Assembly: GCA_964016885.1 (NCBI GenBank)
Contig: OZ024743.1
Location: forward strand, 27,838,001-27,902,000
DNA from: Eledone cirrhosa
Lineage: Eukaryota
Length of the DNA stretch: 64,000 bases
Direction: 5' to 3'
Both the position numbers and the translations under genes were made by a program. Position 1 is the first letter of the stretch; each line of letters opens with the position of its first letter. Below are positions 3,830-59,171 of this stretch, one piece after another. The notes below the pieces were generated by a model. That model made no database searches, was not told the origin of the DNA, and saw nothing but the letters and a program-made list of their open reading frames with translations.

Positions 3830-4330
3830 TTTCTCTTTCTCTTAATTTCGAGTAAATTTTTGACGGGCCACCTTCCTGGTGGCAAGGCTGTAAAAGAAAA
3901 GAAATTGTCTTTCCTTGAATCGCAAGAATGTTTTGCAAAGTTTGAAGGCGCCAGCTATCGCAGCCATTTGTAGTCTATGAATTAGGGAGCTGCGTTTTTT
4001 GTCCACACATTCAAGTTCAGCTATACTTAGGTCCAAGCGGGCTGGTATATAAGCTGTAGCTCGAACAATGATGGGTATGAAGCTAAAGGTGTATCTTGGA
4101 TAGTGGATCCTCAAACGCCTCATCAATAGTCCGTAGATATCCTCCTTCGCTTGTATTTTTCTTACAACGTTGACATCAAGTGGGCAGCTGGTCTCTATAA
4201 CAGAGCACGTTTTCAATGTGTGGTCCCAAATAACAATATCAGGCCGGTTGTCTTTTAATTAGGTGGCAGTTTTTATTTTCTGGTTACACTAGTATTCTTT
4301 AGTGACATCTATCTAAACATATTCCTCATC
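3830..4330 (-). pseudogene. R4/Dong-like RLE endonuclease 3' fragment
   Basis: Translates NRPDIVIWD..CSVIETSCP..FIPII; similar to the RLE region at 60030-60365. Confidence 0.8.
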
Positions 4331-34503: not shown

Positions 34504-35110
34504 GTCAGGTCACCACTTGGTGCTACTGGTAACATGTATCCCAGTACAACCTGTCTCATGGTCGGGTCGTTGGCGACTAAACTGGCAACCCCACCAAGGT
34601 TTCTTGGTGAGGAGGGTGACTTTGGGCATCCTGCAGGACTAAAAACAAAACCTGTCAAAGGGCAAACAGCTCTTAAGAGTCAATGGCCATCCAGAATCAC
34701 CGGGAGAGATGACCCCTTAGCCTTTGTCAAGGCAGAATTCTAGGAGAAGGAAAACTCTGATATAACACCTGCAACCCTGATGGTATCCAATGATGTTGAC
34801 TTGTTCTTCTTTTTGGTAAATATCATCTTGGTTAAGAGAGTGGGACTGGCTTTGTGCAGTGCCTTTGCTCACTATAAAAGCTTCACGGCACAGGCATTGC
34901 TTTATATCTGGAGATCTCTCTGCACTTGTCGTCACATGGTACCATGGGCCTAGCACTATGTGTCAATAATTGTCACAAGTGTAGTGTTTGTACCAGAGTT
35001 TTCAAGTCGCTGGCTGGACTAAAAAGTCAGTCATTCAGCGCATCGGTAGAGGTTCTCCTACATGGATATGAAGTAGTGGCCGTACTCGAAAACGAGTTGG
35101 CAGCCACCAT
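34504..35110 (+). mobile_element. Bipartite RTE derivative, subfamily C copy 1
   Basis: RTE-like 5'UTR (CTAGGAGAAGGAAAACTCTGA) plus 3' module encoding HKCSVCTRVFKSLAGLKS and hairpin ACTCG-AAAA-CGAGT; (TGTA)n tail. Confidence 0.85.
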
Positions 35111-35182
35111 GTATGTATGTATGTATGTATGTATGTATGTATGTATGTATGTATGTATGTATGTATGTATGTATGTATTTAT

Positions 35183-41430: not shown

Positions 41431-41452
41431 ATATATTATGTAGGATACATAC

Positions 41453-42026
41453 ATGATGGCTGCCCCTCGTTATCGTGTATGGCCATTGCACGATATACCA
41501 TTATTAATAATTATTAATTAATACTATCGTGCAATGCCTGTGAGTGAAGATATTTTTAAAGTGAGGAAAGACTGTGCACTGAGCTAATCCCACTCTCTGA
41601 GCGACAGTAGTTATAACCCGAAAATAAGAAAAGATCAACATCATCGGTAACTACTGAGCCGCAGGTTTTATATCGGAGTTATCCGAGTTTCCTGAGTTGC
41701 CTTCTCCTAGAAGAATGCCCTGACAAATGCTAGGAGTCATTCCCAGTGGTTTAACCGCGTGATCGGGTGTTCAGCCCGACTATTTCTATGTCTCCGCGCA
41801 TATACATATGTACATGTGTGTATACATATTTACACAATTGTGGATGGCCGTTGACTCTTATGAGTTCTTCCGCCCTTTGTCATGTTTTGTTTTTTGTCCT
41901 GCAGGGTGTCCAAAATCACCCTCCTCACCAGCTTGGTAGGGTTGCCGGTTTAGTCACCGACGACCCGACCATGCGACAGGTTGTACTGGGTTACATGTTA
42001 CCAGTAGCACTCAAGAATGACCCGAC
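41453..42026 (-). mobile_element. Subfamily B full copy
   Basis: Homologous to 4398-5006; (TACA)n flanks. Confidence 0.85.
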
Positions 42027-42106
42027 ATACATACATACATACATACATACATACATACATACATACATACATACATACATACATACATACATACATACAT
42101 ACATAC

Positions 42107-42330
42107 ATGATGATGGCTGCCCCCCTCGTTATCGAGTATGGCCATTGCACGATACAACATTATTAATAATTATCAATTAATGCTATCGCACAATGCCTGT
42201 GCGTGAAGATTTTTTTTTAAATTGAGGAAAGACTGTGCACTGAGCCAATCCCACTCTCTGAGCAACAGTAGCTATAACCCGAAAATAAGAAAAGATCAAC
42301 ATCATCGGTAACTACTGAGCCGCAGGTTTT
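42107..42330 (-). mobile_element. Subfamily B, 5'-truncated
   Basis: 3' part only, within (TACA)n. Confidence 0.85.
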
Positions 42331-42419
42331 ATAATACATACACACATAATACATACACACATGCATACATACGTATATATATATATATATATATGTGTTG
42401 TTTGCTACTTCACTTCAGT

Positions 42420-42790
42420 GAACATTGCACAATCATGTACAAGCAGGTGACTTTTCAGACCCGCTTTTGTTTTGCAGGCACGTTCACAGATCTGACACTT
42501 GAACTCTTTCTCCTGGCACTATCTGCTGGATTGTGTCTTCGTGTATTCTACGATGTCTGGTCAGTCCACCAGCTGACTTGCAAATTAAGCCACACTCATT
42601 GAAAATGAACCATGTAGAGCATAGCTGCTGAACCATCTCACAAGTGGCTCGATTCTCCCTGGCTCGTGTGACTTCAGATGGTTGAAAAGTCATCTCATGA
42701 TAGAAGAAATCGGCCACATACATTGCATCTCAATTCCTGATGGATTTCTTCAGGGATTGTATTTGGGCCCCACTTATGGAGTAAACGCTT
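42420..42790 (-). pseudogene. Decayed RTE ORF 3' end with C2H2 fingers
   Basis: ECGLICKSAGGLTRHRRIH and CKTKAGLKSHL match the fingers of the RTE at 49165-49920. Confidence 0.7.
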
Positions 42791-43147
42791 CAAAGTAGCA
42801 TGCTCCACTCATTTTTTTCTCAAAGACATAATATCATTACGTAATTATCATTATCCATGATGTTCGGCCTTCAGTATCAAGTATTTGTGGCCTTTACCAA
42901 AGCCTTCGATACTGTTAATCGTAGTGCATGAGGAAACTTAGATGTCCAATTTGTTGGAACATTTTTATAAACTCCGTCAAAGAAGGGAAGCAAATATCAA
43001 ATTCAATGGGACACTTTAAGAGCCAAAACACACACATATACACGCACACATATACCTGCATACATCCATGCATGCATACATACATACATACATACATACA
43101 TACATACATACATACATACATACATACATACATACATACATACATAC

Positions 43148-43749
43148 ATGATGGCTGCCCCCCCCCCCCCCTTATCGAGTATGGCCATTGCACGATATAC
43201 CATTGTTAATATTTCTCAATTAATTCTATCGTGCAATTCCTGTGCGTCAAGATATTTTTTAAAGTGAGCAAAGACTGCACTGAGCCAATCCCACTCTCTG
43301 AGCGACAGTATCTATAACCCGAAAAGAAGAAAAGATCAACATCATCGGTAACTACTGAGCCGCAGGTTTTATATCGGAGTTATCCCAGTTTCCTGAGTTG
43401 CCTTCTAGAAGAATGCCCTGAGAAAGGCTAGGGGTCCTTCACTCCCAGTGGTTTAACCGCGCGATTGGATGTCCAGCCCGACTATTTCTATGTCCCCGCA
43501 CATATACACACACATGCACCCATGTATATACACATATACATACATATTTACACACTTTTGGATGGCAGTTGACTCTTATGAGTTCTTCCGCCCTTTGTCA
43601 TGTTTTGTTTTTTGTCCTGCAGGGTGTCCAAAAATCACCCTCCTCACCAATAAACTTGGTGGGATTGCCGGTTTAGTCGCCGACGACCCGACCATGTGAC
43701 AGGCTGCACTGGGTTACATGTTACCAGTAGCACTCAAGAGTGACCCGAC
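43148..43749 (-). mobile_element. Subfamily B full copy
   Basis: Homologous to 41453-42026; (TACA)n flanks. Confidence 0.85.
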
Positions 43750-43815
43750 ATAACATACATACATACATACATGCATACATACATACATACATACATACAT
43801 ACATACATACATACA

Positions 43816-43846
<31 letters not shown>

Positions 43847-43848
<2 letters not shown>

Positions 43849-44020
43849 GATGGCTGCAACTCGATTTCGAAAAATGCCATCATTTGATACAGATGTGGCT
43901 TCCTAGTCCAGCTAGGGAGCCACTTATGGCCAGCAATGCCATGCATAGCCACGCATCGCTAAAAATTGTCACATATCAAGCGATGCCTGTGCGAGAAGCT
44001 TTTTTAAGTGAGGAAAGGCT
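43847..44020 (-). mobile_element. Subfamily D, 5'-truncated
   Basis: Matches the 3' module of 36334-36977. Confidence 0.75.
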
Positions 44021-44679
44021 ATACATACATACATCCATACAAACAAACAAGCCAACAAACAAACAAGACTTCTCAGAATCATTGTCGGTATTTCGACATA
44101 GTAATCAATGGACAGAGTCACCAGCTTGGTTATATCAGTGAGTTATACTATATTGTTTTTGGAAATGTTGCACAGCCAGAGGTGATTGCAGAGTCTGTCT
44201 CACTTGTTTCATATATTGTAGATATTTCTGTCTAGGAATAAATCACGTTCAATTTCAATGCTTAAAGAATAGTACATATTATGTTCTGAAATAAAATTGA
44301 TATATAAAAAAAGAACCAAAAATGTTTTCTATAAAGAAATACATTATCACTAACAAAATAATATAGAATTAGAATATAGAAACCAAACAAGAGAAAGCTA
44401 TAAGAAAAACAACTTAAGAAGCGTGGGAGGTGAAAAGAAAACGAAATAAGAACAAAAAACAATAGATAAATATATAAACAAATTAGGAAAATAAAACATT
44501 AACTGAATATTTGAAAGTCAAATTAGTTGTATTCTATTATCTTTGTTTAGTTTGCATACATAATTATTGTTTAGAGGAAATCAGTGTATACGTCAATAAA
44601 CAATCAGAAGTAATAGAACTGTTTAAGAATTATCAATATCAATTATTCATATATGATATAATATACAATATATATATAT

Positions 44680-44747
<68 letters not shown>

Positions 44748-44950
44748 TATATATATATATTCGTCTATGGCATTTAGCACACCCACGTCCTCTTTATATT
44801 CACACGTATGCATGCGTGCGTACATACGTACATATACATACACACACATATATGCATGCATACATGCATACATACATACATACATACATACATACATACA
44901 TACATACATACATACATACATACATACATACATACATACATACATACGTG

Positions 44951-44991
44951 ATGATGGCTGCCCCTCGTTATGGAGTATGGCCATTGCACGA
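44951..44991 (-). mobile_element. Detached RTE/subfamily-B 3' tail
   Basis: TCGTGCAATGGCCATACTCCATAACGAGGGGCAGCCATCAT then (TGTA)n on the minus strand; continues the sequence broken at 49154. Confidence 0.7.
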
Positions 44992-45003
44992 GAAGAAAAA
45001 AAA

Positions 45004-45043
<40 letters not shown>

Positions 45044-45046
<3 letters not shown>

Positions 45047-48000
45047 GTTCGAATAACGGTGAAATGGAGACTAGAACGTCATGTGACAGACTCTCACCCA
45101 ACAGGTGCCCCCTGGCTCAGCAGCAGGAACCTGAGTGTCAACCAAATACTGCTGATGTTGGAGGAAGGAGAAGAAGGAAAGGGGCCAGAACCACCTGGAC
45201 GAAAGAATTGAATAGAACTGTTATGCAATGTTACCTGAAAAGTAACCCCAAGGAGAGGGGCTACAGGAGACGGATGCATAACATCTGGAACGAGATTGGT
45301 TTATTTAAATTAGATGAACAAAAATTGGCCGGGCAGGCTCGGGTAATAAGAACTAATGGGTGGATAAGCGAGCTGGAACTGGAGGAACTGAGCAGAGAGA
45401 ATGGCTTGGAGATGGCGGGTGTAGTATGCCAGACAAGCGAGCCAGTGGGAAATGAAGGTGAAGAGGTCCTGAGAACGGAGGAACCACCCGAAGCAGACAA
45501 TGATCTGAATACTGAGATAAATAATACCTGGAACAGAGATACGGCCACTGAAGAGATGAATGCTGACGGGCTAGGACAAGATTCGGTTGACATCCTAAAT
45601 TTAGTGGTAGATGAATTGAACAATGATAGTGGGAGACCTATGAACCTAAGATTTGTAGACAGGAAAAAGTTAAAAGAAACAACAGCTAAGGTAAACAAAG
45701 TCATCCCATACCTTGAGGCGAGGAGCCTTCACCAGTGCAACAATATCCTCAAAGCAACAGCAAATACGGTGAGGAAACTACTTGGTATAAAAGCGAGAGG
45801 AAACAACAGACAAGAAAGAGCAGAGCCGTGGTGGAAGAAGCGACTGAGTGGGCAAATCGGGGAAATGAGAAATGACATAGGAAAGCTTGAGTCACTACTG
45901 AATGGGACACTAAAAAACATAGGCACTAAAAATAGACTGGAAATAAAATACAAAACTAGGAGGAAAAAGCTAAATATTATCATAGAGGAACTGAAGCAAC
46001 GCATTGTAGCAAAGAGTGCAAAAATCAGGCGATACGAGAACAGAGTCAGTCAGTATAAACAGAACCGCATGTTCGACAACAACCAGAAGATGCTGTTTGG
46101 ACAGCTTGAGGGGAAAGAAAGAGGCAACGACTTGATCCCTGGGGCGGAGCAAACTAAAACATTCTGGAGAGGAATATGGGAGCAGGATGTTAGACATAAT
46201 GTCCAGGCAGGGTGGATTGGGACAGTACAGAGGGAGATCGGTGAGCAGGCACAACAACAAACTGATTTGAGTATCACAGTTGAAACTCTTAAGGGGCAGG
46301 CCAAAAAACTAGCCAACTGGAAATCACCAGGCCCAGATGGTGTGCAGGGGTATTGGATTAAACATTTAACATCCCTCCACCCGAAGCTGACGGCCATGTT
46401 CAATGACTGCTTGGTGTCGGGTGAGGTGCCAGAGTGGTTGACAAAAGGTACCACAGTTCTGATAATGAAAGACCGAATCAAGGGTAATGATGTTACCAAC
46501 TATAGACCTATCACATGTCTGTCCGTAATGTGGAAACTGTTGACGAGCATTGTGTCTGAGGAAATCTGCCATCACCTCCACACAAACAACTTGTTACCGG
46601 ACGAACAGAAAGGATGCCGAAAGAAGTCACGTGGTACAAAGGACCAGTTACTTATTGATAAGATGGTAATGGGGAATTGCAGGAGGAGACACACTGATCT
46701 TGCCATGGGATGGATAGATTACAGAAAGGCATTTGACATGGTGCCTCATTCTTGGATCACCAAAAGCCTGGAGATCTTCAGGGTGGCAGATAACATCAGA
46801 CAGTTGCTGGGCAGGAGTATGGGGTCCTGGGAGACAGAGTTGACATCAACTGGAGTATCCTTGGGAAGCGTGAAGATCAATAGAGGTATCTTCCAGGGAG
46901 ATAGCCTGTCCCCTCTGTTGTTTGTCCTTGCCCTGATGCCCTTGACCATTATGCTGCGAAAAGTGAGGGCAGGATACAAGTTGGGAAGGGGAGAGCTTAC
47001 CATCAATCACCTCCTCTTCGTGGACGATCTTAAGCTCTTCGGGAAAAGTGAGAAGGCGTTGGATGTGCTTGTTGACACTGTCCGTATTTTCAGCAGTGAT
47101 ATATGTATGCAGTTTGGTATTGGTAAATGTGGAGTCATTGTGATGAGGAGGGGTAGGTTGAGCAGAAGTAACGGGATCCAAATACCAACAGGTGAGATGA
47201 TAAAGGAAATTGACTCTGAGGAAGGATACAAATATTTGGGCGTTCTGGAGGCTGATGGCATAAAGAACAAAAAAATGAAGGAATTGTTAAGAACTGAATA
47301 CATTCGGAGAGTAAGGAGCGTATTGAAGTCACATCTGAACAGCAGAAATGCCATAAGCGCAGTAAATTCCCGAGCTGTGTCTATTATTAGGTACAGTGCG
47401 GGAATTCTGAGATGGAATGTTGCTGAACAAAAAGAAATGGATAGGAAGACTAGGAAGCTATTGACCATCTACAACATGTTCCACAAGAGGAGTGATGTCG
47501 ATAGACTCTACCTAAGGAGATCTGAGGGTGGAAGAGGTCTTATCAGCATAGAGGACTGTGTTCAGATGGAGAAAAACAACCTATACAAATACGTGACCTA
47601 TAGTAAGGAGCCAATGCTCAGAACTGTACTGAAGGAGGGGACAGTAGGCCAGGGGATGTCCAAGGAGGAAATAAAATCAAGGAGGAAGAGCAGCCTTAAG
47701 GGAAAATCCCTTCATAGTACCTTCTTTGAGAAAACTGAATTTAGAGATCCACAGGCATGGAACTGGTTGAGAAGAGGAGACCTCAAAAAGGCTACAGAAG
47801 GAATGCTAATGGCTGCGCAGGAGCAGGCCCTCAAAACGAAGTGGTTGAAGCACCATATTTACAAGGAGGAGGCTAGCCCACTGTGCAGGATCTATGGAGA
47901 GAGAGAGGAGACTGTGGCTCACATTGTGTCCGAGTGTAAACACCTAGCCCAGACCCACTATAAGGGCTGGAGACACGATGTGATGGGCAGGGTGATCCAC

Positions 48001-48530
48001 TGGCACCTGTGCAAAGTAAACAATTTACCACATTCTGTGAAATGGTATGAGCATAGGCCAGAGGCGGTGATGGAGAACAATCAGGTGAAGGTGCTGTGGG
48101 ATTTTAGGATACAGACGGACAAAAAACTGGAACACAATAGACCTGACCTGGTGGTTGTGGACAAAGAAAAAAGATCGTGCCTGATTGTGGATGTGGCCTG
48201 CCCTTCGACACGAGAGTGCAAGAGAAGGAGAGGGAGAAAATTAACCGATACCAGGACCTAAAGTGGGAGGTGAAAAGGATTTGGAACTGCCATGAAGTCA
48301 AAGTGATCCCGATTGTCATAGGCGCACTGGGGACTATCTCCAAAAGTTTCCAGGGATGGTTGAAGAAGATCGGCCCCTTCACGCTTTTTGGAACACTTCA
48401 AAAGGCATGCTTGCTTGGAACAGCAAGAACCCTCCGATACGTCCTGAATATCTGAGGCTGCAGGTAGTGGCTTGATATTCAATCCAACGGACTTTCCAGT
48501 TAACCAACATCAATGACTGAAATTCAAGGA
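45044..48530 (+). mobile_element. Near-full-length R4/Dong-clade non-LTR retrotransposon in (TAA)n
   Basis: Single RT-CCHC-RLE ORF; (TAA)n on both flanks, the known target of Dong elements. Confidence 0.92.
45064..48455 (+). CDS. RT + zinc knuckle + restriction-like endonuclease polyprotein, one frameshift near 48203
   Basis: [57 protein letters not shown] (second Cys is Tyr), RHD, RPDLVV..IVDVACP; C-terminus continues in ORF 48177-48455. Confidence 0.9.
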
Positions 48531-48616
48531 ATAACAACAATAATAATTATAATAATAATAATAAATAAATAAAAAAAATAAAAAAGAAATATATATATAT
48601 ATATATATATACATAC

Positions 48617-48946
48617 ATGGTGGCTGCCAACTCGTTTTCGAGTACGGCCACTACTTTATATCCATGTAGGAGAACCCCTACCGATGCGCTGAACGGGTGT
48701 GACTTTTTAGTCCAGCCAGCGACTTGAAAACTCTGGTAAAAACACTACACTTGTGACAATTATTGACACATAGTGCTGGGCCCATGGTACCATGTGACGA
48801 CAAGTGCAGAGAGATCTCCAGATACAAAGCAATACCTGTGCCGTGAAGCTTTTATAGTGAGCAAAGGCACTGCACAAAGCCAGTCCCACTCTCTTAACCA
48901 AGATGATATTTACCAAAAAGAAGAACAAGTCAACATCATTGGATAC
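48617..48946 (-). mobile_element. Subfamily C, 5'-truncated
   Basis: Reverse complement of about 34782-35110. Confidence 0.85.
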
Positions 48947-49015
48947 ATACATACATATATACATACACACATACATACACATACACACACATATACACAC
49001 ACATACATTAATAAC

Positions 49016-49055
<40 letters not shown>

Positions 49056-49153
49056 GCAATAATAATAATAACGACAACAACAATAATAATATACATATTC
49101 ATATATATATACACACAGACGCACGCACATAAGCATATCTACACACACACACA

Positions 49154-52100
49154 CACGATAGCAACTAACAGTGCTGCGATCGAATGCGGCTTTTTAGCCC
49201 AGCCAATGATCTAAAATGTCTTGCACAGAGTCGGCAACCAAAACATTCACTGGGAATAGTCGGCTGTGGTTGGAGTTCGTGTACTTTTGCATGTCGCTTG
49301 AGCCCTCCTGCTGATTTACATTCTCTACCACATGTTTGGCAAGCATGATGAGTAGCATCTCCAACAGCAGCCTGGTAGTCAACCACTGGTCTTACTTTAT
49401 GACTGCGAAGATGACTTTTGAGTCCAGCTTTGCTTAGGCAGAGTCTCGCACAGACGCTGCATGTCAGCACCATAGGAGGACCCTCGCCGTCTGGAAGTGC
49501 AACAGCAATGCCCTTCCTCACATCCCGCTTTACTTTCTCGTGTGCGATTCGAGATGCCTCAAAGGCAACTTTTCCCTCATATACAGTCTTTCTCCATTTA
49601 TTACGATCAGCAGCAATATTTTCCCATGTATCAGCAGAGATGTTAGCGTCTTTCAGAGAGGCTTTCAAGGAATCCTTATACCTCTTTTTTGGTTTATGTG
49701 GCGGTCGTTTTCCTTTAACCAACTCTCCATAGAAAAGTTGTTTTGGTATTCTAGAATCCTTCATCCTGGCAAGGTGACCACTCCAACGGAGTCGTTGCTT
49801 AAGCACAAGAGCTTCTATACTGTCACACATAGAGCTTTCCAAAATCTCGACATCACTGATGTGGTCCCTCCAGTTAACGCCATGGATCCGTCTGAGACAC
49901 ATCTGATGGAAACGCTCCAATTGCCTAAGGTGGCGTCGATATGTGACCCAGGTCTCTCAGGCATAAAGAAGACAAGAGAGTACACATGCCCTGTACACCT
50001 TTACCTTTGTCCTCCTGCATATGTCTCGCCGACCCCCAGAGTCGCCTTTCTAGCTTTCCGAAAGCATCACTTGCTTTCCTAATCCTAAGTGAGATTTCAC
50101 TGTCAAGGTTGCCGTATCGATTGACAGTGCTTCCCAGGTAGACAAACTGATCAACCACTCCAAGTCGTTTGCCATACACATAGATGTTTGGTTCAGTGTA
50201 CTGCTTACTGGGGGCAGGTTGGTACATGACGACGGCTTTCTTGAGACTGACAGTCAAACCCAGGGCAGTGCAAGCGTCAGAAAATGCATTCAAAATGTGC
50301 TGCATATCACGCTACAAGATCGCAATCATCTGCATACAAGAGGTCTCTTATGATTGATGTAAATACTTTTGTCTTCGCAGCAAAGCGCCTGATGTTAAAT
50401 ATGCTGCCTGAGGTTCGATATCGGATGTAAACACCATGCTCGCAATTCCTGAATGCAATACAGAAAACTATTGCAAAGTATATGGCAAACAGGGTCGGTG
50501 CTGGAATATCCCCCTGTTTCACTCCATTGTTTACTGAGATAGGCTCCGACATGTTACCTCCGACATTAACCCAAGCCTTCATGTCGTCATGGAAAGACCT
50601 AACTAAAGCGAGGAACTTATCAGGGCAACCAAGTTTCTGGAGAACCTTCCATAATGCATCTCTGTTGACAGTATCGAAAGCCTTTGTCAGATCGACAAAA
50701 ACCTGATACAGATCCAAGCCTTGTTCAATGCACTTCTCCTGGAGCTGTCTAGCTGAGAAGATCATATCAGTAGTGCCGCGTCCAGCACGAAACCCAGATT
50801 GACTTTCAGGAAGAACACAATCTGCAATGTGTGTCAGCAGACGGTCCAGAAGCATCCTACATAAAACTTTCCCTTCGACAGAAAGCAATGATATACCTCT
50901 GTAGTTCCCACAATCATTCCTGTTACCCTTTCCCTTATACAAGACCACCATTACTGCATCTCTCCAGTCCTCAGGCACGGATTCATTAGCCCATATCCTT
51001 CCAAACAAAGAGTGAAGATGTTGCAGGAGTCTCTCACCACCATATTGTAGGAGCTCAGCATGTATGCCATCCATACCTGGAGATCTTCCACTGTTCAGCT
51101 TCGAAATAGCCACTGCAACCTCCACAAGCGTCGGAGGTTCTGCGAGAGCTACTTTCACAGGACTTTCTGGAATGAGATTGAGGAAATCTTCACTGACGAC
51201 AGACGGCTGATTCAAAAGATCATCAAAGTGCTCTCGCCATCTTCGTAGAATTCCCTGTGAGTCACGAAGAAGTTCTTTGCCATCCTTGCTGCGAAGCGGT
51301 TTCACCAGAGAAGAAGACGGTCCATAAACCTCACGCAAGAGACTTTGTGTTATTGGAATCAGACGCAGTTTGTATCTCACCAGCCTTCTCACTCCACCAC
51401 TGATCCTTCATCTGAGAAAGACTCCGCCTAACACGTGATTTTACATCCCTGAGCTCCTCATGCAACGTATTCCTCTCCTGTGGTTTTGCCGTCAAGTAGC
51501 GTGACAGAGCACGCCTCTTATCAGCCAATAAGTCTTCTATATGTACATCATTCTCATTAAACCAGTCCTGATGTTTTCTCTGCACCAATCCCAGAACACG
51601 CCTGCCTACATCATAAACCGACTTTTTAAGGGTCGGCCAATCCTCACCAAGATCTGCAGCCTGCATCTCTTCTTCCAATGTCCTCTTCACATGTTTATCC
51701 TTAAGACGAGCAGCATTCAATCTTTTGGGCAGGGTAACACCAGGAGCCCGGATTTTACGTTTGGTGATTAGTTTCACTTTTGCGCGTACCAGGCGGTGGT
51801 CCGTCCAGCACTCAGCTCCACGAAGAACACGAACACACTGCACATCCTGTCTGTCACGCATCCTGACTAGGACGTAGTCCAAAAGATGCCATTCCTTAGA
51901 TGCAGGATGCATCCATGTGGTCTTGAATTTGTTCTTTTGTTGGAACATGGTGTTGGTAACACACAGATCCAGCTCCTCACACATCTGCAGCAGGAGCATA
52001 CCATTGCTGTTACACTTTCCCACCCCATGCCTTCCGATTACATTCCATGTGTTAAAATCCCTACCCACTCTAGCATTAAAGTCACCAAGCACGATGACTT

Positions 52101-53060
52101 TGTCTGCCTGAGGGATATTTCTTAGAACACCTTTCAATGCATGGTAAAAGGACAGTTTTTCTTCATCGACAGAATTCATAGTTGGAGCATACACACTCAC
52201 CAGGGTAGCATATCTTCCCTTGTCCAGCGGAACTCTCGTGGACATAAGACGCTCACTAATCCCTACTGGGAATTCTTTTAATTTATTCACAAGTACAGTC
52301 TTAACAGCAAATCCTACCCCAGCCTCTCTTCTGGTTCCTTCATCTCTTCCTTTCCAGAAGAATGTATATTCTCCACAAAATTCCGTAAGATGACCATCTC
52401 CAACTAACCTCGTCTCAGATAAAGCCACGATGTCAAGATCGTAACGTCGAAGCTCCTTTGCAACAAGAGCGGTCCTTCGTTCAGGACGCTCCAAAGAATC
52501 CCTGTCAAGCAGCGTCCGTACGTTCCAGCAGCCAAGACTAAATGCCCTGTTTGGCTCTATTACAATGGCACGATGACGAGCGGGCCCAGGATGTGATAAC
52601 TTGGGGCCCCTGCCCTTATTGCCAATGATCTTTTTTGTTCCAGAACTTAAATTGCCAATTATCTCTTTTACATTGTTCTGGAACATCATTGAATTGGAAA
52701 AAAAAAAAAAAAAAAAAGTAATAATAATAGTAATAATAATAATAATAATAATAATAGTACACTATTAATAATTATTAATGCACTCGTGCAATGCCTGTGC
52801 GTGACGAATATTTTTAAAGTGAGGAAAGACTGTGCACTGAGCCAATCCCACTCTCTGAGCGACAGTAGCTATAACCCGAAAAGAAGAAAAGATCAACATC
52901 ATCGGTAACTACTGAGCCGCAGGTTTTATATCGGAGTTAACCCAGTTTCCTGAGATGCCTTCTCCTAGAAGAATGCCCTAACAAGGGCTAGGGGTTCTTC
53001 ACTCCCAGTGGTTTAACTGCGCGATCGGGCATCCAGCCCGATTATTTCTATGTCCCCGGG
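49154..53060 (-). mobile_element. RTE-clade LINE, near full length
   Basis: 5'UTR 53060-52760, AT tract, then a single EN-RT ORF with several disablements. Confidence 0.92.
49165..52689 (-). pseudogene. RTE ORF: APE endonuclease, RT, three C2H2 fingers; disrupted near 51335, 50307 and 50020
   Basis: CWNVRTL, LSETR, VYAPT, LGDFNARVG, TDHRLV; NYRGISLL, FVDLTKAFD, GVKQGD, LLYADD; three CxxC..H..H motifs (first His of the last one is Arg). Confidence 0.92.
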
Positions 53061-53211
53061 CAAAAAAAAAAAAAAAAAAAAAAGAATCACTTATTGACAT
53101 TTATACGTACGACATACACACACTCGCATACATATGCGCGCACACAGCAACACTCATACATACAACAAACACACACACACGCTACTCTACTCACTTACAC
53201 GCACACACACG

Positions 53212-53279
<68 letters not shown>

Positions 53280-53284
<5 letters not shown>

Positions 53285-54506
53285 GGATATACCCCAAACC
53301 ACCACTCCGACTGACAACCAAATTTATTTAAACGTTCAAAACGTATGCAACTCCATCGAAAAACTTATGAATACCAACACAGAACAAACGACATTGCTCC
53401 ATATCAAAAACCAAATGGGATACCTCTGGAAAAAACATCTAAAAACCAGAAAATTCACTTTCTGGAATATGATAAAAAACCTCAACAAAGCTGGAATTTA
53501 CCAAAAATGGATTAACTCAACACCGATAGTTTTACCACGTAAATTCCAAATAAAGCATATTACAAACGAACCTGAACCAGAAAGAAAACTCCGTGAACAA
53601 ATGTCACTCAACAGGATAAACATGGAAATAGAACTCCTAAAATTAAGGGCCACCTCAAACGAGCAAGTGTATAAGGATACTGATAAAAATATGGAGGAAG
53701 AATGCACTAAAAAGGCCGAGGGAACAACCCTACAAAATTTAATCAAATCGTGGAAACAGGACTGCGAGAATGCAGAAACTATTTCCCTTAAGCGGTGGGA
53801 AAAATCCGAAAACTGGTTCCTCAAATATGAAGAAGACTTTAAAAGGACGCACCAAACAGGTAACCCCTTTATAAAGCATTTGAACATAACAAGAACTACA
53901 ACAGACACATTTACACCACCAAACCAAACACACACTAACCACAGGCACATCCCCCACCAACACAAACCAAATACGGCCAACTACACCAAAAGAAACACAC
54001 CCAACCACCACAACACAGGTTTCCGTAGAAATGCCCCCTACATAAACCAACGACGAAATAACATAGATCCAACTCACAACACACACACCACATTCCTCAG
54101 AAGAAATCCACCCAGACCACTTGAAATCACAACAGAACTTACCCACAACCACACCAGACATCACCCTCAATCCAACAAAAGACAACTCCCCAACCTCAAC
54201 ACTCTGTACCACAGAAATAACGCACCCAGACCACATGAGCCAACAACAGAACCCTTGCTCATCAACAACCACAACACATACCACCCCCACCATCACATTC
54301 ACCCTCATGAAACAACAAGCTACAGACCCACACGCAACAGACCAACAAAATATAATCACACACAAAACTACATTCCTTTTTTAGGGAAAAGCCTGAAATA
54401 CCAGGATACTCGATGCCCCCCCCCCCCCCCCCCCTCAGGAGAAACCAAAAATAATCAACCTCTCAAAGACACCTCTAACCAACACACAAATCAACATTTT
54501 AAGTAA
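53280..54506 (+). CDS. PLE N-terminal ORF (helical region plus His/Thr/Asn-rich linker), probably 5'-truncated
   Basis: Open frame from the (TA)n edge; overlaps the RT frame around a 19-C run. Confidence 0.6.
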
Positions 54507-56700
54507 GGGCCTGAAATTTACACCTACACCACGTAAACCAAACTTCCCCGAAATGAAGGATGACATCATGGAATACTGCCGAAAGCTGCGACTAACGGAA
54601 TTCTTCCACAACGACACCAACACTGAAGACGAATCACTGGTTAGAAATAAAAGCAATTTCTGCCCACAAAAGGGAAGAAATAAAGCACTGGACACGTACT
54701 GCGAACACATCACCAACTTTCCCTATGAAAAAATTACAAATAAACACACGAAATCAAACCTATCTACACACGAATGGGAAGAATTATTCACACTTAGAAA
54801 CAACCCTGAGATAACTATCAAAGAAGCCGATAAAGGCAGTACTGTTGTCATTATGAATACGGACTACTATAGGACCCTCGCACTTAACATTTTAGAAAAC
54901 AACACATACTATGAAAAAACAGAAAACTACAAACACACCAAAACAATGGGGAACCTTTTAACCTTACTGAATAAATACCGCAACAGCTTAACCACAAAAG
55001 AGTTTAACTATATAAGCCACTTCAAATGCAATACAAGCTCTTTTTACGGCTTACCGAAACTCCACAAATGTAAACCCATAAACGATGCATGTGACACCTC
55101 AACCAACAATTACATTGAACTAACACCACCAGAAGACCTAAAACTCAGGCCAATTATAGCAGGCCCTACATGTGAAACCCACAGACTTAGCAACTTTCTG
55201 GACATCCTACTGAAACCCTTTCTACAACATATACAGAGCTACATACGAGATGACCTTGACATGCTGAAACACCTCCCTAAAACAGTAAGTGCAAATACAA
55301 TTCTTGTCTCCTTTGACGTAATAAACCTCTACACAAACATACCTCACAACTATGGAATAACAGCAGTCCAATACTGGCTTAACACACACCCATCAGAAAT
55401 ACCGACACGCATCAACACAGATTTTATCACTGACGGACTCCGCTTTATCCTACAAAATAACTACTTCACATTCAATGGTTCAACATACAGACAAGTATCA
55501 GGTACGACAATGGGCACGAAAGTAGCACCCACATATGCCAACCTAGTCATGGGATTCCATGAACAACAAATATACAGTCAGTCCCTTCTCTTATTTGGAG
55601 ACTCTTTCCACACACACCTCAAAGCCAATTGGAAAAGATATCTAGACGACTGCTTTATCCTATGGCAAGAAGACATGAACTCACTTACTACGTTTAAAAA
55701 CATGATAAACAACATAGATAATAACATACAATTCACAATGGAATCCAACCCTAAGCAATTAGCCTTCTTGGATATTCTCATCTCTGTAATAGACGGGAAA
55801 TTAGATACAGATATATTCTATAAACCCACAGATTCCAAGCAATACCTCTTTTTCACATCAAGTCACCCAAAACATACAAAACTTAACATTCCTTACAATT
55901 TGGCCAAACGTATATGTACCATAGTATCAGATCCACCTAAACGGGAGCAAAGACTAAAGGAACTAAAAGACACCCTTATCTTAAGAGCCTTTCCACTTGA
56001 AATAATCAACAATGGAATAGACAGGGCAAAACACCTAAATCCCCATCAACTTAACAATCCAAAACAGAAAACCACACTCAACACCCTGCCATATGTATCC
56101 ACTTTCAACCCCAGAAATACCGAAATGTTTGATCACCTACACAAAAACCTCCCCATCCTACTTAAAGATGTAAAAATGAAATCTATTCTTGAAACACACA
56201 AGATCCTTAAAAGTAAAAGACAACCCAAATCACTTAAACGCATTCTCACTGGACCAAATATACCCAAACCAATCCTCAACCCTACAGTTACCAAATGTGG
56301 TAGAACAAACTGTGGAACGTGCCTCTACCTCACTGAAGGACAAACATTTACATTCAAAGATGGCCAAACATTTACAGTAAAAAACAATTTCACCTGCAAC
56401 TCGGAGAACTTGATTTACGCAATAACTTGCGGTGGGTGCAAACACAACTACATAGGACAGACGGGCACCTCATTACGCAAAAGAATGACCATCCACCGCC
56501 AACAAATCCGGGACGCTAACACAAGAAAAATCCCCTTGAGCAGCCATATTGCGAACTGCGCAGGAATGACACTACCCAACTTTAAAATCTTCCCCTTCTA
56601 CAAGTGCTCAGATTCGTTCACACAGCAACAAAGAATAAACAAAGAAAATCTATTCCTTAACAAATTTAAACCAAAACTAAACGGGTTATCACCCCAATAG
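54433..56700 (+). CDS. PLE reverse transcriptase + GIY-YIG endonuclease
   Basis: IINLS..LSKGLKFTP, EADKG, FYGLPKLHK, SFDVINLYTNIP, GTTMGT..PTYANL, RYLDD, KCGRTNCGTC, NLIYAITC..NYIGQT. Confidence 0.93.
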   Translation, partial: PQEKPKIINLSKTPLTNTQINILSKGLKFTPTPRKPNFPEMKDDIMEYCRKLRLTEFFHNDTNTEDESLVRNKSNFCPQKGRNKALDTYCEHITNFPYEKITNKHTKSNLSTHEWEELFTLRNNPEITIKEADKGSTVVIMNTDYYRTLALNILENNTYYEKTENYKHTKTMGNLLTLLNKYRNSLTTKEFNYISHFKCNTSSFYGLPKLHKCKPINDACDTSTNNYIELTPPEDLKLRPIIAGPTCETHRLSNFLDILLKPFLQHIQSYIRDDLDMLKHLPKTVSANTILVSFDVINLYTNIPHNYGITAVQYWLNTHPSEIPTRINTDFITDGLRFILQNNYFTFNGSTYRQVSGTTMGTKVAPTYANLVMGFHEQQIYSQSLLLFGDSFHTHLKANWKRYLDDCFILWQEDMNSLTTFKNMINNIDNNIQFTMESNPKQLAFLDILISVIDGKLDTDIFYKPTDSKQYLFFTSSHPKHTKLNIPYNLAKRICTIVSDPPKREQRLKELKDTLILRAFPLEIINNGIDRAKHLNPHQLNNPKQKTTLNTLPYVSTFNPRNTEMFDHLHKNLPILLKDVKMKSILETHKILKSKRQPKSLKRILTGPNIPKPILNPTVTKCGRTNCGTCLYLTEGQTFTFKDGQTFTVKNNFTCNSENLIYAITCGGCKHNYIGQTGTSLRKRMTIHRQQIRDANTRKIPLSSHIANCAGMTLPNFKIFPFYKCSDSFTQQQRINKENLFLNKFKPKLNGLSPQ

Positions 56701-56995
56701 AATTGTCATAAAATATAAACACACATACGCACGGAATCACTACTATTAAAGACCAGAGACCAATTCTGTAGAATCAGGTTTATTCGTTGACAGACCATGC
56801 CTTTGTGTGACCAACACATCCATGTTAAACCCTGCACGTGCACACACATATATCTATATATATATGCGCACACAGAATTCACCACTGTCGGTTGCGGGGC
56901 CCAATCTACATGAAGAACTCAATGTGATCAGAATAACTTGTATTTTAATTTCACTGTCCCAACTTCTTATATTATGGAAAAAATATATGTGTCTG

Positions 56996-57031
<36 letters not shown>

Positions 57032-57062
57032 GAGGCCATTTCTCTGTGTGTGGGTGTATGTA

Positions 57063-57093
<31 letters not shown>

Positions 57094-57339
57094 ATGTGTG
57101 TGCATGTGGATGTATGTATTGTGTGTGCGTGTGTGTGTGTGTGTATGTATGTGTGTATCTGGATGTATGCGTATGTGTATATATATATATATATATGCGT
57201 GTGTGTGTGTATATATATGTGTGTGTATGTGTATATATATATGTGTGTGTGTGTATGTTTGTATGTGTGTATGTATATATATATATGTGTGTGTGTGTAT
57301 GTATGTGTGTATCTGGATGTATGTGTATGTATATATATA

Positions 57340-57374
<35 letters not shown>

Positions 57375-57455
57375 GTGTGTGTATGTGTATATATGTGTGT
57401 GTGTGTGTGTGTATGTATATGTATGTGTGTGTATATGTATATATATATATATATA

Positions 57456-57494
<39 letters not shown>

Positions 57495-57838
57495 GTATGT
57501 GTGGATGAAGGTATGTGTGTATATATAGGTGTAAGTGCACTAAATCCCTTTCTATCACGCTCCACTCTCCTACCCACCACAGGAAGATATGTGTATGTAT
57601 ATTGCTTCCACCCCCTCACTGACCAGCAGCTGGCCAGTTGGCGATTGCTAAATCTGACCTTTATAAAATAACCCACACCCCAAATAACTTCTCATTCACT
57701 ACCAGAAAGGGACACAGCAGTCAACCTGTTGTTGCTACCTAGATGAAAACTGCTATGAAATCCCACAATGAATTTTATACTTGAATTTTCAAACCTCAAA
57801 TTTTAACTTCGTATTATTAATTTTTCTTAATATTAATC

Positions 57839-57886
57839 AACATTTGAAAAGATAGCTTTTGCAGTCCCATCGAAACCGGTCATTTT
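57839..57886 (+). ncRNA. PLE 3' hammerhead motif (U3-A8 variant, weak stem I)
   Basis: AACAT TTGAAAA GAT..ATC GAAA CCGG TC ATTTT. Confidence 0.6.
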
Positions 57887-59171
57887 TTATACCCTTTATT
57901 ATTTCCTTACCTTATAAAATTATGTTTTTTCACAAAAAAGTATTCTGTCTCTTATATATTCCATGTGCCATTACCAACCTCAATTTTCTCTATAACCTTC
58001 GTTTTGTGTAGAAAATTACACTTTTCATATATATATATATATTACCGTCATTACTAATACAAGATTACAAGATTATGTCAACTGTTGACTTTCAAGAGTT
58101 TGTATAGTTGAAGCCGATCGTATTACAGTCCAGTATTACTATAATTGCTTTACAGCATAGAGTTATGGCTCTCCACGCTCTGAGCTCAAATCCCGCCGAG
58201 ATCAACCTTGCCCTTCATCCTCACAGAGTCAACAAAAGAGAGTACCAGTGATGCGCTGAGCCAGTCGCTGGATCCGTGCCAAAAGCAGAAAAATTATTAT
58301 TAAAGTTGTTTTCTTAAGGCACGGTCGCTGGTGATGGTGTTGGCGGCGGCGGTGGCGGTGTGGTGGTGGTGGCAGTTGATGTTGTTGTTGTGTTGTGTGT
58401 GTGTGTGTGTGTGTTTTGTTATTTTGAGTTTTTTTTTGTTTTTTTTCCTCTTCCCCTTTTCTTTTCTTTTCTTTTCCCTTCCTTTTTTTATGTTTTGATG
58501 CCGCTGTTGTTGTAAATGTTCATTTCAGTTCATTCTGAAGTTGTTGTTGCTGTATAAATTAGTGCCGGTGTTGTTGTTGTTGTAGATGTTGGGGTTGAAA
58601 TCTGGTCGTTTGACTGAGTGATGTATATACACACATATATATATACACATTCAACAGAGAGTAGAGAGTTTGACAACAGGTCGATGACTTTAGTCTATAT
58701 AGGGTATGGTATGGTAATGACATGTGATGGTGGGGAGAGAGTGTAGACGTTATTGTGGTGGTGGGGACAGTGAGATGTATCTAGTTCATTTGACCGTTTT
58801 CTTCTCTTAGCAAAATTTGAATTTTAGCCATGTTATATTGAGATGTAAGTAAATGTAAAATGTAAAATATAAATAAGGATTGCTCTGCTAAAATATACTA
58901 AAATATTTGTGTAACTTCCACAAACTTCTGTCGTGACATTCCCGAGTCCAGTGACCAACAAATTGTTGTATTTTGATGTTTCAGAATACAAAAATTAATT
59001 AAAAACTTACCCCACGAAAAGACAGCGTGTGTTGTCCTATCTATAAGCTCCCTCATACATACATACATACATACATACATACATACATACATACATACAT
59101 ACATACATACATACATACATACATACATACATACATACATACATACATACATACATACATACATACATACA

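Follow-up and report, generated by a model that had tools for sequence, protein, structure and literature searches.

In flavivirus RNA and in Ty1, short complementary elements at the two RNA ends cyclise the molecule end to end and aid its copying. Those are other element classes, with other kinds of priming, than the non-LTR element (one without long terminal repeats) considered here, to which target-primed reverse transcription applies. Closer to it are the bipartite non-autonomous derivatives of RTE retrotransposons, which are already known (PMC5786205, PMC7245038, PMC4844689): WALLSI3, RTESINE1/2 and Bov-A consist of the 5′UTR (UTR, untranslated region) plus the 3′ end of a long interspersed nuclear element (LINE), with the open reading frame (ORF) deleted. 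According to Kojima 2018 (PMC5786205), only a small number of LINE groups give rise to derivatives of this sort 'for unknown reasons', and the parts of that paper covered here do not mention pairing of the two portions. We analysed a window of 64,000 nucleotides (nt) from Eledone cirrhosa (contig OZ024743.1, positions 27,838,001 to 27,902,000), a repeat-rich stretch of a 3.0-Gb genome, which holds an RTE-type LINE and copies of three ORF-less families (B, A and D) that, with a further family (G), are likewise made of 5′UTR plus 3′ end. The two ends of these elements carry complementary arms of 11–13 nt that covary between lineages; the RNA likely folds end to end, and on balance we favour a reading in which the resulting stem and the terminal hairpin beside it would form a copying signal for the element's protein.

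The window LINE has a single ORF with apurinic/apyrimidinic (AP) endonuclease and reverse transcriptase (RT) domains, matched by PF03372 (E 2e-12) and PF00078 (E 1e-23) in successive fragments of the one broken frame, and a separate ORF1 is absent. Fetched copies end in short tandem repeats, with tetranucleotide or dinucleotide tails after the hairpin. By this anatomy, and by a likeness of its UTRs to those of RTE-3_AMi judged by eye, the element appears to be of RTE type. RTE-2_OV of Octopus vulgaris (PMC9115989) similarly has a single ORF with endonuclease, RT and a C2H2 finger, and a 3′UTR that is mostly microsatellite starting at the ORF end, a likeness drawn from its description and not its sequence; end pairing is unmentioned in the text of that report covered here. 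The 3′-terminal hairpin of RTE LINEs and Au-like short interspersed nuclear elements (SINEs) covaries (PMC6007223), as does the one here, but that structure is local, whereas the stem described below bridges 3–4 kb.

Late in its 5′UTR, the window LINE carries an 11-nt arm that is exactly complementary to the 11 nt directly before its terminal hairpin (Table 1). We fetched 39 other copies of this young LINE, of which 30 reach the stop codon. Both ends could be located in 22 copies: in 21 of these, 11 positions pair in cis, and in the remaining one 10 do (G–U pairs allowed), with arms 2.7–5.0 kb apart and the 3′ arm 200–1221 nt past the stop. Deletions that take away the 3′ arm entirely or for the most part were also seen, in single copies (L069:5185, minus strand; L093; L117).

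The first-pass annotation had proposed that the 5′UTR and the 3′ end are complementary across the ORF. That idea holds, and the complementarity is older than the deletion that removed the ORF, as full-length old copies carry both arms; the proposed register does not hold. The annotation had joined 49163–49154, just after the stop codon, to 44986–44982 as the partner of 52793–52779. The quoted letters are all present, but the two halves are adjacent in none of the 30 stop-reaching copies, in all of which a microsatellite block follows, and the joined sequence with four flanking bases is nowhere matched exactly in the genome. Without flanks, the 15-mer has 641 genome matches, and all 30 that were inspected turn out to be B's 5′ arm in antisense; it follows the stop codon in 0 of the 30 copies, the first of the outcomes that the annotation had named as refuting its proposal. 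Because the halves are not adjacent in other copies, and because the two mismatches are shared by 39 of 39 copies, as a state of the family and not as decay, the pairing at 13 of 15 positions is artefactual; what pairs with the 5′ arm lies beside the hairpin and not in the post-stop 10-mer. We also rejected an ancestral contiguous 15-mer split by microsatellite: older copies have a separate 3′ arm and a different post-stop sequence, which grades into the present one, and the microsatellite block of at least 200 nt is the family's own 3′UTR. The distance from stop codon to 3′ arm goes from ~10–40 nt in old copies (L168–L217) to 200–400 nt of layered microsatellite in young ones (L031–L065), the 3′ arm having stayed beside the hairpin while the young 3′UTR lengthened.

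Different arm sequences, still paired, occur in four other lineages of the genome. Family F is autonomous, with an amino-acid identity of 33–67% depending on the segment. We predicted its 5′ arm from its 3′ arm before the former had been seen, and the prediction was then confirmed: the consensus arms (from 28 of 30 and 30 of 30 loci) form 11 of 11 Watson–Crick pairs, and L351, the only F copy seen whole, forms 10 of 11. Pair 7 is A–U in the LINE and in B, U–A in A, D and G, and C–G in F. In a 13-pair helix compared over 15 copies from families B, A, D and G, 97.4% of cells are paired and 5 of the 13 pairs change on both sides; the terminal hairpin (helix 2 of the same alignment) is paired in 95% of cells and also covaries. 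Cognate arm duplexes have energies of −17.8 to −22.3 kcal/mol, a strength that shuffled arms reach 0–1 times in 5000, and the true assignment of arms ranks first of 120 permutations over five lineages, the counts in this test being rows with overlapping loci included. Family-level G–U pairs in A and G favour pairing at the RNA rather than the DNA level. Taken together, these comparisons indicate that the complementarity of the ends is kept by compensatory change.

Subfamily B, with its 12-bp hairpin around a 29-nt AT loop and no ORF, was correctly described in the first-pass annotation as 5′UTR plus 3′ end. Both parts come from one and the same LINE, and many copies share one junction, a 23-mer across which has 3849 exact matches in the genome. 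The annotation had derived B from the window LINE subfamily; a search for ORF ends near the tail instead revealed an older subfamily, mostly 83–90% identical to the window LINE, which has the same 3′ arm as B and from which B descends. The 5′UTRs of two old copies (L227 and L250) match B up to the junction, and that of L227, which matches one B variant, then runs on to an ORF. In L267, an old copy of full length, 13 bases are complementary in cis; L249 has one mismatch and L250 a decayed 3′ arm. Pair 11 is U–A in old copies, a U·C mismatch in L253, L255 and L259, and G–C in young ones, a series that we read as one compensatory event with its intermediate. Two other origins were set aside. The LINE did not arise by insertion of an ORF into a B element, as the ORF of old and F LINEs is immediately preceded by this same UTR frame, and a junction formed through a 12-nt direct repeat shared by the 5′UTR and the old post-stop region is not supported, as B retains parental 5′UTR past the repeat.

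Three more families without an ORF, A, D and G, have the same flanks and different arm sequences, and all three keep the end of the ORF between their arms. For D, the parent is represented by an ORF end only (L302). The 5′ arm of D has a second, local partner ~20 nt downstream (window 43985–43945, minus strand), so that two folds may compete in this family. B and A start with a common head of ~150 nt (window 42025–41880 and 43755–43600, minus strand; 34505–34650, plus strand) that by eye resembles a hepatitis delta virus-like ribozyme. An Rfam search over 34–54 kb, a region that holds full-length B and A copies and this shared head, returned microsatellite-driven microRNA matches only, with no ribozyme match at E 0.1 and no tRNA, 5S or 7SL head of the kind that defines SINEs. 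The young LINE differs from B and A at this end (window 53070–53270 and 58026–58593, minus strand; L002–L030): none of 30 young copies has their shared head within 700 nt upstream, a difference that points to replacement of the 5′ end.

Similar stems can be found in other animals. We judged these by eye in supplement S1 of Kojima 2018 (PMC5786205), with no chance control. In alligator RTE-3_AMi, 10 bp join ~283–292 to 3854–3863 over ~3.6 kb, within the frame also seen here; the stem of turtle RTE-1_PSi is 9 bp long, its pair 2 being compensated on both sides; and BovB has 10 bp (~812–821 with its 3′ end, ~3 kb apart), with a compensated pair in Bov-A2. Shorter stems are visible in RTE1_LA, RTE-11_AMi and RTE-4_PPo, no clear stem could be read in HaSE1 and HaSE3, and the UTR frame around the Eledone arms resembles those of RTE-3_AMi and RTE-1_PSi (PMC5786205). 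The literature searched, which left subscription papers and patents outside its coverage, held no description of pairing between RTE ends, and the part of PMC13295347 covered is silent too. We give an even chance to the broader proposal that, clade-wide, the RTE template signal is split between the RNA ends and brought together by a long-range stem beside the 3′ hairpin.

We propose that the helix would form beside the covarying terminal hairpin and be part of what the element protein recognises, and that it would serve copying rather than translation. The ORF-less families would arise by ordinary internal deletion, which is common, perhaps aided by the ends being close, and deletion derivatives would spread only if both arms survive. 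Folding models disagree on the stem. Cofolding of the UTRs gives it a probability near 1 in 5 of 5 copies only when the microsatellite is left out, and the probability is high for F and for one of two old copies; the stem forms in 3 of 4 folded copies of the short ORF-less elements, and in a folded B copy 11 of the 12 hairpin pairs have probabilities of 0.83–1.0. Several results weigh against the proposal. The minimum free energy structure of one full-length young LINE lacks the stem, which costs 12 kcal/mol to force; cofolding of whole microsatellite-bearing UTRs gives it a probability of 0 in 3 of 3 copies, as it does in the other old copy; and one of two folded A copies, with a deletion in its 3′ arm, is without it. 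On these results, the stem of the young LINE would need protein or kinetic help. The control for the 13-pair helix (none of 500 shuffles attains its number of paired cells; slid registers give 28–48%) favours that helix, as the structure was chosen from the same sequences, and its cells count related sequences. The 5′ arm of D fits the 3′ arm of F as well as its own, so D and F are not fully independent. The parents of A and G were not found, all 28 pattern matches in the search for the parent of A being A copies or truncated ones. Some RTE-mobilised SINEs, tobacco TS among them, are described with no more than a 3′ tail in the part of PMC3747384 covered.

Directed loop-out is the mechanism put forward in the first-pass annotation. 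In this account the stem would keep the two ends close, RT would jump over it, and such a mutational bias would be what creates the ORF-less families. The 3′ breakpoint of B, which falls within 1 nt of where the 3′ arm ends on its inner side, speaks for this, as does a 5′ breakpoint 29 nt beyond the 5′ arm (L227 compared with B); the two parts of WALLSI SINEs meet with a loop of ~6 nt by eye (PMC5786205), the loop of the G-derived copy L367 is only a few nt, and R2 template jumps happen in vivo (PMC3414825). R2 short internally deleted elements (SIDEs) are also internally deleted non-LTR parasites, for which a template jump or recombination was proposed and recombination deemed likelier; 5′–3′ pairing is unmentioned in the text of that report covered here (PMC3414825). 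However, the junctions of A, D and G lie tens of nucleotides off the arms (loops of ~156, ~90 and ~60 nt, compared with 29 nt in B); none of 11 internal deletions among the 39 young copies (59–1318 nt, across the ORF or its start) falls at the stem; and the sole end-to-end deletion, in L069, takes out most of the 3′ arm. All four ORF-less families retain both arms at consensus level, but a break at the stem is confined to B, so that selective retention is a better fit than directed loop-out. We therefore consider loop-out unlikely as the general cause, with a contribution to B and to elements of WALLSI type being plausible.

The stem might instead form but serve translation or RNA stability as a closed loop, and be merely inherited by the ORF-less families. 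End pairing aids translation in some RNA viruses, and the 5′ arm lies ~65–110 nt upstream of the start codon in the young and old LINEs as well as in F, a position that would suit such a role. Yet four non-coding families keep the stem, which favours copying over translation, and published RNA polymerase III SINEs, although they need no translation, keep a 5′UTR piece that ends at the arm (by eye, PMC5786205); we rate this explanation as somewhat less probable again than loop-out. The complementarity could, finally, be due to chance or be a DNA-level inverted repeat made after the deletion, given that 11 bp is short for AT-rich UTRs and that whole-RNA folding does not favour the stem. Against this stand the presence of the stem in full-length elements, at a fixed position and with different sequences in five lineages, the G–U pairs and the confirmed prediction; the F prediction and the permutation test have already largely refuted this explanation, and we regard it as very improbable. 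The reading that we prefer is retention of a stem that would serve copying.

Several further elements interrupt or adjoin the window LINE. Its 5′UTR is severed by an RT-encoding insertion at ~53270–58000 (ORF 54397–56700), which we take to be Penelope-like, and its 3′UTR is additionally split by a family A copy and another element. The latter, a second non-LTR element in the opposite orientation, lies repeatedly in (ATT)n tracts of both LINE UTRs (here and in L032, L039 and L065–L068). At 42400–42980 (minus strand) lies the 3′ part of a further LINE that ends in zinc fingers and lacks this tail motif. The C-terminal fingers of the window LINE (49168–49956, minus strand) have a weak, below-cutoff match (E 1e-3) to zf-C2H2_jaz, a model of double-stranded RNA-binding fingers; they are a candidate reader of the stem. 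A search of the PDB found L1 and R2 proteins only, and no RTE structure.

Table 1. Positions of the LINE, its arms and related elements in the window.
Positions	Strand	Feature	Basis
34505..35112	+	Family A copy; arms 34895-34908 and 35065-35078, 156 nt between them including ORF end
41448..42025	-	Subfamily B copy, RTE 5′UTR + 3′ end, no ORF; arms 41536-41525 and 41495-41484
42099..42333	-	5′-truncated B copy, variant matching old LINE L227
43140..43755	-	B copy
43850..44020	-	5′-truncated family D copy; arms 43985-43974 and 43889-43878
44964..44975	-	RTE-tail terminal hairpin, 4 bp (one mismatch in window copy), then tetranucleotide repeat tail
44982..44992	-	Stem 3′ arm, exact 11-nt complement of 5′ arm, directly before terminal hairpin	Sequence
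45045..48530	+	Unrelated RT-encoding non-LTR element inserted in (ATT)n part of LINE 3′UTR	Same insertion type in L032, L039
48609..48946	-	Family A copy, 5′-truncated, inserted in LINE 3′UTR
48947..49153	-	First part of the family's own microsatellite 3′UTR; resumes at ~48600-48530 and 45040-44993
49154..49163	-	Post-stop 10-mer, late-derived start of microsatellite 3′UTR, outside conserved stem	Copy comparison
49165..52689	-	RTE-type ORF, single and broken in window copy; AP endonuclease and RT domains, C2H2 fingers at C terminus	Profile matches
52783..52793	-	Stem 5′ arm, late LINE 5′UTR, ~95 nt upstream of first ATG	Identical in 39/39 other copies
58026..58593	-	Upstream part of young LINE 5′UTR	blastn, 83%

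Template recognition by LINEs is usually assigned to the 3′ end alone. A split signal, if true, would account for the piece of 5′UTR retained by RTE parasites and RTE-driven SINEs, and it would provide a design rule for RTE gene-writing templates. In gene writing with RTE-1_MD, the payload is placed between the 5′ and 3′ UTRs of the element, which were improved by screening (PMC13708176), and a stem rule would be of direct use there if it holds for that element. Kojima 2018 (PMC5786205) leaves open why few LINE groups yield derivatives of 5′ plus 3′ parts, a question for which the covarying stem offers a precise test; pairing of the ends is a likely reason that the RTE group so often spawns short two-end parasites.

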